Part shown: positions 24,041 through 27,000 of the stretch, piece by piece
Layout of the letters: every line of letters starts with the position of its first letter
Position numbering within the stretch: the first letter of the stretch is position 1
Source of the DNA: Chitinophagales bacterium
Lineage (GTDB): Bacteria; Bacteroidota; Bacteroidia; Chitinophagales; JADIYW01
Reading direction: 5' to 3'
DNA length: 64,000 nt
NCBI GenBank assembly: GCA_046329865.1
Contig: JAXLTW010000015.1
Coordinates: 10,935 to 74,934, forward strand
Position numbers and translations under genes: made by a program
Notes under the pieces: model-generated
Databases searched by the model: none
Seen by the model: only the letters and a program-made list of their open reading frames with translations
Told to the model about the DNA's origin: nothing

Positions 24041-27000
24041 ATGATGAATCATAAACAACGAGATACTTCACATAATCATACAAGGCATTTGGCTGCTGTA
24101 TTTTTATTTCTGATGGTTTTTCAGCTTTTTTCACCGGCTGTCTCCTATGCATTAACTTCCGGACCCACACAACCGGAAGTACAGGGATTTACACAATACG
24201 GTACTACTGATATAGTGGATCCATTTTCCGGTAGTTTTTCTTACAATATTCCTTTGTTGGAGATACCCGGACCGGACGGCGGATATCCGATTAATTTATC
24301 TTATAGCTCAGGTATTTCTATGGATCAGGAAGCCAGTTGGGTAGGCTTGGGTTGGAACCTGAATGTAGGGGTAATTAACAGGGAAATGCGCGGACTGCCC
24401 GATGATTTTGACGGGGATATTATTCGTAATAAAAAATACATGAAACCGAATATTACGATTGGTGCCGGGGTTACAATTGGTGCAGAGGCAGAGTTTGCAG
24501 GTGTGCCAGTTAAAGATATTTTAAGTTTCAGCGCAAGTAAAGGGATCAAACTGTATTATAACAATTATAATGGTTTTGGGGTAACACAAGAAGGTGGATT
24601 TTCAATAGGTGCGAATAAAAATGGAATTGGTGCATCCCTCGGGTTGAGCATGAGTCAGGATAATATTGAAGGAGGAAAAGTAAGCCCGACATTGGGATTA
24701 AGTTATTCGAAAACAAAAGGGGATGCTACCGTTGGCGGCGGGTTACAAATAGGCATGAATTTCTCTTCCCGGTATGGATTACAAGGAGTTTCATTAGGGA
24801 TGAATGTTTCAAGAACGATAGAGTATGCATCAACAAAAGCAAAAAATAAGAAATCGCCGTTAAGTAAGAAGGAAGGATATAAGAACAGCCAGTCACTCAG
24901 TTTGTTAAGCACCAGTTTATCGTATGCAGGGGCAGCCCAAAGCCCACGCATCAATGATGAAATGAAGAGTATGGGTTTTAATGCGTCCTTACAATTAGGG
25001 GGTCAGCTGATGGTCGCAAATATTGACGGTGAGATTAACGGGTTTTGGAACAAAGAGGAACTGGCGCATAACAATGAGTGGGTGGAGAATGAAGGATTTG
25101 GGTTTAATTATTTACAACATGTAAAGGAAGATAACCAACTGATGGACTTTCAAAGATCATTGGATCAACCCGTTGGCCCGGATGTAAAAACTATTGCCCA
25201 GCCAATTTTAAATTATGACATCTACTCCGTAAAAGGACAGGGTATAGGGGCTATGCTCCGCCCATTCAGGTCGGATATTGGCATGCTGCGCGACGATGTA
25301 AAAGAATCTGATGGATGGAATGCTTCATTAGCGGTGGAAATAGCTGGGGGGAATTTATTCCACGCAGGAGGTTCCGGATTTGGTGGAATAACACAATCTT
25401 CTTCAGGTGACTGGTCCAGAAATGCAGATATTCATGATCTATTTAAATATAAAGAATCTGTTACAGGAAACCCTTATTTTGAACCTGTTACCTATCAATC
25501 CTATGGAGAGATACATGCATTGGATAAATCAGAAACAGAAAACCTGCTTCAGGGATTTAAACCAACATACCTAAATATCGGGCCAAATGCAATTACGGGA
25601 GGTGATTTTTCCATCTTGAAACAAGTGGCCGGCAGATCTGCTTCCGGGGTTTTTGTCAAATACCCAACCGTAAATACATCCGGCAAACGAATACCGAGAA
25701 ATATCAGTATTCAGCATTTTACCAATGAACAGTTGAATGTTGAAGATAATATCTTAAAGCAATTTGATATTAAATATACTACGAACGTTAACGAGTCTTA
25801 TAACCTTAATGAATTAAATAAACTTGTCAACAGGGATGCTTTACCTCCCAGACAGACCGGTGGTTTTGAAGCGGTAAACACCAGTGGACTGAGGTATATA
25901 TACGGGATGCCTGCGTATAATTTGTCAAGTACGGAATGTACTTATTCCGCTGCGAAAATAAGTGGCAATGAATATAAAGTGGATTGCATAGATAATGGTA
26001 GCGGGGATCCTGTTGCAGCGCCTGCAGGGTATGAAGATTATCTGGAGAAAGAAGAGTTGCCGGCCTATGCACATTCTTATTTGTTGACATCTGTACTTGG
26101 CTCTGATTATATAGATATGGATGATAATGGCGTTTCGGATAAGGATTTAGGGTATTGGGTGAAATTTAATTACCTGAAAACAAATGGGAACGAAAGCGAA
26201 GGATTGAAGCCCTATAATTGGAGAGCGCCATACAAAGGAGGAAACTATAATGAAAAACTGCAATCTAAAGACCGGGATGATGTTGGAACATATACATTTG
26301 GCAAGAGGGAAAATTTTTATGTAACCAGTATTGAGACCAAAACGCATGTTGCAGAATTTTATCTGAGTCCGAGACACGATGCCAGGGGGGCGGAGAAGGA
26401 AATACAATCATTGAATTTCAATCCGTCAAATGCCGCTTCTTCCTACAAATTAGACAGTATTCGTTTGTTTACAAAACCTGAACGCTATGATGCGAACGGT
26501 GCAATTATACCCAATGCCATCCCGATAAAAACGGTGCACTTTGAATATGCCAATTATCCCGGAAGGTATGCATCTGCTAAAGAATTGTGTAAAGGACCGG
26601 ATAACGCAGCCGCAAATACAGGGAAACTTACGCTGAAATCGGTATGGTTTTCATACAGGAATAATGCAAAGGGAAAAGATAACAATTATGTATTTGATTA
26701 TCATGAAGGGCTTAACAATGAAAATCCCGACTATAATCCGTTTGATTATAACAGATGGGGAGATTATCAGCCGAATGATCCTGACTATTGTGAGAATAAA
26801 TATTTCCCGTACACCAGACAAGATTTACCCAAAGCTGAGATAGACAGAAGGGCTGCAGTATGGAACCTTAAGGAAATAGAATTGCCCACCGGTGCCAGCA
26901 TGAAGATAAACTATGAAGCGAATGACTATGCTTATGTGCAAAATAAACCCGCCATGCAGATGTATAAAATTGCCAGTGTGGGAAATACCGATGGTATAGG

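Follow-up and report, generated by a model that had tools for sequence, protein, structure and literature searches.

The window analyzed here is a stretch of 64,000 nucleotides (nt) from a Chitinophagales bacterium (GCA_046329865.1, JAXLTW010000015.1, positions 10,935-74,934, forward strand). It carries a gene for a 1660-amino-acid (aa) protein, hereafter the target, which lies upstream of a gene for a giant rearrangement hotspot (RHS) toxin and which begins with a short module that appears related to the plug of the TcB subunits of Tc toxins. The parts of the target gene are as follows:

24041..29023, + strand: the complete gene, encoding a predicted Sec-exported envelope protein of 1660 aa and putative 'B-like' partner of DUF6443-RHS toxins
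24041..24151, + strand: signal peptide (aa 1-37), with the h-region LAAVFLFLMVFQLF and a cleavage-like site between SYA and LT, as read from the sequence
24149..24421, + strand: N-terminal plug-like module (aa 37-127), with apparent homology to the SpvB/TcB N-terminus and DUF6531; it includes 24218-24418
24410..25405, + strand: beta-meander (aa ~124-455), Gly/Ser-rich, with ~12 long amphipathic antiparallel strands; candidate membrane beta-barrel
25406..29020, + strand: C-terminal ~1200 aa, made of beta-rich domains without a solved structural relative

The N-terminus of the target is a typical Sec signal, in which positively charged residues are followed by the hydrophobic stretch and the cleavage-like site listed above, and aa 5-30 are modelled as a helix by AlphaFold. 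After the signal peptide, the sequence YALTSGPxQPE is nearly invariant across the family. The stretch 24218-24418 (+) had been flagged in an original prediction made from the sequence alone, and its translation there is exact: it reads DPFSGSFSYNIPLLEIPGPDGGYPINLSYSSGISMDQEASWVGLGWNLNVGVINREMRGLPDDFDGD and corresponds to aa 60-126 of the 1660-aa open reading frame (ORF). Conservation within the family is highest in the flagged segment and its module (0.89 by column, vs 0.49-0.72 elsewhere), and the module is 73% identical to distant members as compared with 34% for the rest of the target. A hypothetical protein from a Chitinophagales metagenome-assembled genome (MAG) matches the target with 100% identity, in keeping with the target's earlier description as a Bacteroidota protein. 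Neither a curated Pfam match nor an NCBIfam match was obtained for the target, and PHROGs together with NCBIfam gave nothing for it or for most of its neighbors; with no PHROG matches, a phage origin is unsupported.

The original prediction had read the flagged segment as an SpvB/TcB N-terminal signature. Over the first ~65 residues, motif order and statistics both agree with this, but the similarity does not extend to a whole SpvB domain; it covers about the first quarter of the 287-position profile and stays below the curated cut-off. The Pfam SpvB model (PF03534) matched aa 61-127 of the target to profile positions 2-66 of 287 with 19.9 bits (E 4.6e-4), under its gathering cut-off of 22 bits. 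A second family, DUF6531 (PF20148; gathering cut-off 24.1 bits), matched the window protein with 15.1 bits (E 0.03) and a Hymenobacter variant with 20.6 bits. Of all Pfam families, DUF6531 was the one that the module matched most frequently: at E <= 0.01, it was found in 16 of 30 relatives (best E 2.5e-5), and SpvB in just two of the 30. The claim that the protein lacks RHS repeats held, as the Pfam RHS_repeat model matched neither the target nor any of the 30 relatives. The models for TcdB_toxin_midN, TcdB_toxin_midC and FG-GAP, which had been suggested along with SpvB, gave no match at E <= 0.1 in the target and none in the 30 relatives.

Profiles were also compared by hhalign. The family profile aligned over 62 columns (aa 62-127 with SpvB 32-94) to an SpvB/TcB profile, with a probability of 63% and an E-value of 6.9e-5. 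The latter profile comprises 33 proteins, for which residues 1-360 of Salmonella SpvB had served as the query, and it matches residues 1-~590 of TcdB1, TcdB2, and YenB in the PDB. A profile of the module aligned to the TcdB1 N-terminus (module aa ~50-121 with TcdB1 27-88; probability 35%, E 4e-4). Once the module was removed from the target, the remainder reached a probability of <2% against the SpvB-family profile. Since the SpvB match stops at positions 2-66 and nothing is left after removal of the module, the similarity extends no further than the first quarter of the SpvB domain. The possibility that this domain is present in a diverged, split form was also considered, as hhalign with a single SpvB had aligned aa 664-730 with SpvB 188-253 (E 0.055); this alignment was lost with the family profile, and the idea that the rest of the domain lies there was rejected on that basis. 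Searches of PDB sequences with the single target sequence returned nothing, not even TcB, and those with a 94-sequence profile of the whole family returned nothing at E <= 10.

At the level of sequence, the module is homologous, weakly but consistently, to the TcB/SpvB N-terminal module and to DUF6531. Judging from position and alignments, the shared piece would be the ~70-90-aa N-terminal plug/constriction module of TcB and not a TcB subunit. In TcB, the plug domain lies at the cocoon exit, where it forms the constriction for toxin threading, and it is homologous to the cork of RhsA, a type VI secretion system (T6SS) effector, as found in T6SS Rhs proteins (Günther et al., 2022, PMC8765631).

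The likeness to TcB (TcdB2, TcdB1, YenB) consists of the motif order LPL..G.GY.P.L.LxYxSG..GLGW..I.R...G.P.[YF] over ~65-90 aa, and of the encoding of the target beside a protein that carries an RHS core and a toxin. Unlike TcB, the target has neither a beta-propeller gate nor an RHS shell, it possesses a Sec signal and a ~330-aa amphipathic beta-meander that are absent from TcB, and no TcA gene is present at the locus. TcA-type domains were not found in Pfam scans of the neighboring ORFs in the window, and none is listed for the neighbors at loci L001-L003. DUF6531, the commonest Pfam match of the module, is probably the cork of T6SS Rhs proteins (Pseudomonas protegens RhsA residues 305-386). 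In RhsA, however, the plug is a cis element flanked by PAAR and the RHS repeats, and the T6SS serves for export, whereas the module of the target is on a separate, Sec-exported protein with no T6SS genes nearby.

The rest of the target is not TcB-like, as it has no RHS shell and no beta-propeller. It was modelled by AlphaFold2 in two stretches from 47-sequence alignments: aa 1-1200, with a mean predicted local distance difference test score (pLDDT) of 70.0 and a predicted template-modelling score (pTM) of 0.68, and aa 1000-1660, with a mean pLDDT of 75.6. In the region of aa ~124-455 (pLDDT ~55-85), ~12 antiparallel strands of 11-16 residues each are joined by tight turns. When dyad hydrophobicity is averaged over the family, the two faces of most meander strands differ by 2.1-4.0 units. 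Foldseek comparison of aa 1-1200 with the PDB gave only weak matches, to outer-membrane barrels (OpcA, OmpG, OmpA, Pla, FapF) and designed transmembrane barrels; the outer-membrane matches have E-values of 6.5e-3 to 0.2, probabilities of up to 0.77, and template-modelling (TM) scores of 0.2-0.36. UPF0164 and PelB-barrel appear among the weak Pfam matches of the target or its relatives. Together, model and amphipathicity suggest that aa ~124-455 may form a membrane beta-barrel.

For the remainder of the protein, aa 600-1200 are modelled with a pLDDT of 80-90, the second most conserved block of the family (aa 1161-1360) contains the motifs YGGGxRV and NDMHGK, and a ~30-residue beta-hairpin is modelled at aa ~1420-1481. 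The long beta-hairpins of the target have weak Foldseek matches to aerolysin and lysenin. No match at E <= 1e-3 and no TcB or RHS structure was found when both models were compared with the PDB by Foldseek; the RHS structure 8qja surfaces only at a probability of 0.13 and a TM score of 0.07. A comparison of aa 1-1200 with the predicted viral structures of BFVD yielded nothing significant. Since Foldseek found nothing significant, no fold is assigned to aa 460-1660.

The family to which the target belongs is large. A word-indexed search returned more than 3,583 homologues, all unnamed or 'hypothetical', of either ~1,600-1,700 aa or ~2,100-2,490 aa; precomputed Pfam domains are all but absent, with PF02018 (CBM_4_9) on two of the 120 homologues listed. 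The long members are fusions of the target with the partner protein described below (e.g., 2400 aa in Saprospira and 2459 aa at locus L003). When the 91-aa module was used in phmmer against 1.84 billion cluster representatives (50% identity), 10,998 matched at E <= 1e-3, 3,576 at E <= 1e-10 and 701 at E <= 1e-30, and the module is located at residues ~30-125 in all of the top 150 matches. For synteny, one genome per species was scanned, which gave 186 relatives and 80 analyzed loci. All 186 relatives belong to Bacteroidota or to unclassified MAGs, with members in the Cytophagales, Chitinophagales, Saprospirales (Saprospira grandis DSM 2844, Aureispira), Flavobacteriales, and Sphingobacteriales (Mucilaginibacter). 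Full-length homologues, all annotated as 'hypothetical protein', were also found by tblastn against PLSDB on plasmids of Bernardetia, Aureibacter, Fulvitalea, Aureispira, and Pontibacter.

The plasmid search also recovered the shorter type-2 proteins, namely WP_284686895.1 of Chondrinema litorale (1275 aa) and WP_264694611.1 of Hymenobacter sp. YIM 151858-1 (1188 aa), both annotated as 'RHS repeat domain-containing protein'. Their genes directly precede those of giants annotated as 'DUF6443 domain-containing protein', so that each locus consists of a two-gene pair:

L086 9863-20264, Chondrinema litorale plasmid: N-module protein of ~1,200 aa, then DUF6443 giant
L087 10028-20363, Hymenobacter plasmid: N-module protein of ~1,200 aa, then DUF6443 giant

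Like the target, the type-2 proteins have the N-module (hhalign probability 96-98%, E 1.3e-9 to 4e-13), the block at aa 803-964 of the target (probability 82%, E 1e-5), and a position directly before the DUF6443 giant. Unlike the target, they are only ~1,200 aa long, show no counterpart of the beta-meander of aa 124-455 in the hhalign comparison, and end in RHS repeats (Pfam 39.3 bits, residues 1146-1176). The OmpH, lipoprotein, partner, and LolA3 genes are not at their type-1 cassette positions at the type-2 loci. The type-2 pair can be seen as a simpler, TcB/TcC-like version of the system, lacking the beta-meander and the chaperone genes. A further intermediate is a 1725-aa protein of Hymenobacter DG01, which shares family columns 11-910 with the target (E 1.6e-53) and differs in its C-terminus, where a weak RHS repeat is found; OmpH and lipoprotein genes lie upstream of it. 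From these bridging relatives it follows that, as far as sequence goes, the 'B-like' proteins that are paired with DUF6443 giants make up a superfamily in Bacteroidota whose defining feature is the N-module. The beta-meander and the Skp-like, lipoprotein, and LolA3 genes go together in the few loci seen.

The target is one component of a gene cassette, here termed type 1, with the order Skp/OmpH-like chaperone, small lipoprotein, target, adhesin-like partner (frequently fused to the target), LolA3-family protein, and DUF6443-RHS giant. In the window, the genes adjoining the target are:

20366..23203, + strand: 945-aa protein with a signal peptide, a coiled coil in its middle part, and a C-terminal half rich in beta structure; subclade-specific accessory gene
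23205..24038, + strand: 277-aa signal-peptide protein, separated from the target by a 2-nt gap
29010..32433, + strand: partner gene (~1140 aa), with a variable N-terminus and a conserved C-terminal ~500 aa that includes a CBM_4_9-like region
32440..33120, + strand: LolA3-family periplasmic protein, 226 aa, aligned over its full length with NCBIfam NF053579
33077..42486, + strand: giant RHS toxin, Sec-exported, DUF6443-type, and polymorphic, ~3100 aa if intact, delimited by tblastn with the L001 and L005 giants
41773..42483, + strand: C-terminal toxin domain, after the core-end motif DLDGL (41758-41772)

The original prediction had placed the target upstream of an RHS gene and on a protein separate from it, and both statements stood. 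Rhs_assc_core was found in the intact ORF 35887..42486 of the giant (ORF aa 1873-1962), and the linkage is tight: 63 of 67 loci have the RHS giant downstream in the same orientation. The denominators of such counts are the loci with enough sequence, which for the giant means at least 6 kb downstream. The partner (~840-1140 aa) is directly downstream of the target in 69 of 70 loci, a ~200-aa protein is found upstream in 51 of 70, and an OmpH/Skp-like gene, so assigned from a Pfam OmpH match of 62 bits in Saprospira, is upstream in 34 of 70. Both inspected copies of the ~200-aa protein have a lipoprotein signal. All cassette proteins inspected bear a signal for Sec export or for lipoproteins, which suggests that the cassette as a whole functions in the envelope.

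In the Chitinophagales subclade of the window, the genes for the 945-aa and 277-aa proteins take the place of the usual OmpH-like and ~200-aa lipoprotein genes. The 945-aa protein is 45% identical to the product of a 1035-aa gene at the same position in L001, is present in L005, and occurs in three of the 80 loci overall. The 277-aa protein has no Pfam, NCBIfam, or PHROG match; its last ~100 aa recur upstream of other cassettes, as C_154 in L003 and as the C-terminus of a LamG protein in L051. In relatives, the N-terminus of the partner carries NIDO and PKD domains (Pfam).

The ~230-aa gene between partner and giant resembles LolA3 (Fjoh_0605, PGN0947), in that the LolA3_fam match spans the entire gene product. 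Against the curated NF053579 cut-off of 83 bits, the window copy reaches 25.3 bits, and genes at the same position in Fulvivirga and in a Chryseobacterium MAG reach 114.7 and 89.9 bits. Of 10 loci other than that of Fulvivirga, nine (the Chryseobacterium MAG among them) matched at E 1.6e-7 to 1.7e-25, with E 1.6e-7 to 2.8e-23 for the eight besides the Chryseobacterium MAG, and an ORF of ~220-240 aa with a signal-peptide-like N-terminus immediately precedes the giant in at least 49 loci (for instance, L012 17389-18072 and L051 17508-18227). LolA3 of Flavobacterium johnsoniae (Fjoh_0605) and Porphyromonas gingivalis (PGN0947) has no reported function and no reported gliding or type IX secretion system (T9SS) phenotype (PMC11885536), and it is reported to bind LolB only weakly (PMC13103446). 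The cassette context suggests that LolA3 is a chaperone dedicated to the toxin system. A homologue search with Fjoh_0605 returned only Fjoh_0605 itself, and its neighboring genes are unmentioned in the literature searched.

The giants of relatives have signal peptides, DUF6443, and RHS_repeat. No SpvB/DUF6531-like module is present in their first 1100 aa (hhalign probability <1%), and a cis plug of that type was set aside for this region, though DUF6443 could still serve as one. The window giant's C-terminal toxin domain has no Pfam match. It contains YIGPNN (42058-42075) and HDKDY (42178-42192), which resemble, as a motif-level impression, the Ca-loop YxGxG and the catalytic HDxxY of small phospholipases A2.

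A set of genes like those of type II secretion systems and type IV pili (T2SS/T4P) lies directly upstream, on the same strand, in about 8-10 of the 80 loci:

L003 1-7520: T2SS/T4P-like set
L051 51-6444: T2SS/T4P-like set
L007, L023, L045, L048, L049, L059, and L060: also with the set

It comprises a secretin with an STN domain, T2SSF, a pseudopilin with an N_methyl motif, and several proteins of no recognized type. Given its presence in just that fraction of loci, it was set aside as a core part of the system.

Taken together, these data are tentatively read as follows, and this is the interpretation favored here: the target is a 'B-like' docking/export partner of the Sec-exported DUF6443 RHS toxin at the outer membrane, within a Bacteroidota cassette that is phylum-wide. 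In the periplasm, the module would dock in trans on the N-terminal opening of the giant's cocoon; such docking is proposed because the homologous module of TcB and RhsA lines or seals that opening. The Gly/Ser-rich beta-meander of aa ~124-455 would then form a barrel in the outer membrane of the producer, with the Skp-like, lipoprotein, and LolA3-like components assisting either the biogenesis of the barrel or the handling of the toxin. At the outer membrane, the cocoon would be anchored or presented by the resulting assembly, which would also give the toxin an exit, while the PKD, NIDO, and CBM-like domains of the partner would face outward.

A stronger form of this proposal, which is possible but already on the unlikely side, holds that the cassette is a dedicated and hitherto unrecognized pathway, found across the Bacteroidota, for the export or delivery of Sec-dependent RHS toxins across the outer membrane. 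In it, a TcB-type plug would be fused to an outer-membrane barrel, the toxin would be threaded from the periplasmic cocoon through the pore, and LolA3 and the Skp-like protein would serve as assembly factors. If true, it would represent a new type of secretion system built on the Tc-toxin threading principle.

Several points weigh against the docking/export proposal. The homology of the module is weak, with 19.9 vs 22 bits for SpvB, 15.1 vs 24.1 bits for DUF6531, and hhalign probabilities of 35-63%; the sole match of the module profile among PDB sequences is the RHS-like mosquito protein SGS1, at a non-significant E-value of 0.98. The barrel rests on a pLDDT of 55-85, TM scores of 0.2-0.36, and E-values of 6.5e-3 or worse, and dyad amphipathicity is found in soluble sheets too. 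DUF6443 could act as a cis plug within the giant, in which case a plug supplied in trans would be unnecessary. In the lineages that possess it, the T2SS/T4P-like set may be the outer-membrane route of the toxin. Finally, the partner and giant genes are both frameshifted in the window, so this copy may be non-functional or may contain assembly indel errors.

The alternative that survives best, though unlikely, is that the target is an outer-membrane translocon or usher whose module plugs its own barrel, in the manner of TonB-dependent transporters and ushers, and which serves RHS export without touching the cocoon. The predicted beta-meander begins right after the module, chaperone genes of the Skp and LolA kinds adjoin, and Sec or lipoprotein signals are present throughout the inspected cassette proteins, all of which would suit such a device. 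A self-plug is at odds with the type-2 relatives, which retain the module without any beta-meander to plug, and with the contacts that the homologous module makes with the RHS shell in TcB and RhsA (PMC8765631).

With TpsB/CdiB, chaperone-usher systems, and inverse autotransporters, the cassette shares a giant Sec-exported cargo, an adjoining protein with a predicted barrel, and an operon that includes periplasmic chaperones. In its succession of signal peptide, N-terminal domain, predicted barrel, and large C-terminal region, the target resembles inverse autotransporters and ushers. Homology of the target to Omp85/POTRA proteins, to ushers, or to intimin is absent in both sequence and fold, however, so that the likeness is one of analogy only.

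Somewhat less probable again is a Bacteroidota analogue of the tripartite Tc toxins, in which target and partner would form a secreted device resembling the A component, with the beta region inserting into the membrane of the target cell and the module coupling to the cocoon. The PKD, NIDO, and CBM-like domains of the partner and the weak aerolysin and lysenin matches of the long beta-hairpins are in line with this, as is the orientation of the TcB module toward the TcA channel (PMC8765631), and the secretin-containing T2SS-like genes of a subset of loci could export the complex. On the other hand, neither PDB sequence searches nor Foldseek found significant similarity to TcA or to pore-forming toxins, and neighbors of the Skp, LolA, and lipoprotein types better suit biogenesis in the envelope of the producer.

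That the target is a true split TcB, supplying half of the RHS cocoon and its gate as TcB does with TcC, is very improbable and can be regarded as largely refuted already. The gene order, with the N-module gene upstream of the RHS-core gene, mimics tcB-tcC, and the type-2 relatives end in RHS repeats; the target itself, however, has no RHS repeats, FG-GAP, or TcdB_mid, its SpvB similarity is limited to 62 columns, TcB and RHS structures are absent from its Foldseek matches, and with its ~2,500-3,100 aa the giant could build a complete shell alone. A convergent or chance resemblance to SpvB/TcB, with a function unrelated to the RHS toxin, is equally improbable, as the below-threshold scores over a shared stretch of ~65 aa are outweighed by the agreement of independent methods (Pfam on relatives and two hhalign comparisons), the presence of the module in cis on annotated RHS-repeat proteins, and the synteny with RHS giants.

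What would be new about the docking/export system is the placement of the plug module: in an RHS/Tc-type toxin system, it would be carried by a separate envelope protein that is not itself an RHS protein. RHS toxins are exported from cells by the T6SS, as Tc complexes, or by a few other routes. For the abundant Sec-signal DUF6443 giants of Bacteroidota no account of export was found in the literature, and the literature searched held no description of DUF6443, the target cassette, or a role of LolA3. The target family, which comprises thousands of clusters and has no Pfam or NCBIfam model, is the most constant neighbor of these giants, and it appears to carry in trans the small module that controls cocoon exit in Tc toxins and T6SS Rhs proteins. 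If the model of a membrane barrel and threading holds, it would amount to a new export pathway. The cassette also offers a candidate function for LolA3, for which a crystal structure and knockout mutants exist but no role is known. Cultured carriers include Fulvivirga sp. M361, Saprospira grandis DSM 2844, Chryseolinea lacunae, Dawidia cretensis, and Algoriphagus, as well as Aureispira and Bernardetia, in which plasmids carry it.

In the window, tblastn with the intact 1138-aa protein of L005 places a frameshift in the partner gene near 30613, where the match passes from frame 3 to frame 1. The 5' third of the giant (33077-35887, ~930 codons) has at least four frameshifts and runs through frames 2, 3, 1, 2, and 1. 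In L005, an 84%-identical Chitinophagales locus, the partner is intact and the giant is uninterrupted to the end of the locus. Outside the cassette, a DUF885 gene (49359-51100, - strand) is split, with 50306-51100 corresponding to profile positions 1-220 and 49359-50354 to positions 223-531, and of an Exo_endo_phos_3 domain, ORF 5051-5563 contains no more than the C-terminal half. Genes are thus broken outside the toxin cassette as well, and because the DUF885 gene elsewhere in the window is also split, indel errors of the MAG assembly are at least as likely as pseudogenization.

The cassette region (15000-33000) has a GC content of 0.32-0.41, as compared with 0.42-0.47 for its flanks, a close relative adjoins a resolvase/recombinase gene (L001 1-1018; L046 is also cited), and full cassette proteins are encoded on small plasmids of Bernardetia, Aureispira, and others (PLSDB); for these reasons, the system looks horizontally mobile. 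Three genes for T9SS cargo lie upstream of the cassette on the + strand, at 16-1056, 3781-4938, and 10367-15571. Por_Secre_tail is present on the products of two of them, one of which is an Endonuclease I, and the third encodes a 1734-aa protein that has CHU_C along with seven PKD domains. No T9SS C-terminal domain is detectable on any cassette protein.

Downstream of the toxin, the region 42486-48209 has a low GC content (0.28-0.36) and contains short ORFs only. No orphan rhs core fragment was found in it by tblastn. A ~580-nt segment is duplicated there (43190-43770 vs 45933-46507, 85-100% identity), and a 54-nt element, palindromic in part, occurs six times, at 43102, 43971, 44377, 45748, 47189, and 47258. 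Within the same region, ORF 47463-47741 has an HUH-like 'SHVHLI' motif, which suggests a fragment of a transposase that is either associated with repetitive extragenic palindromic (REP) elements or IS200-like.

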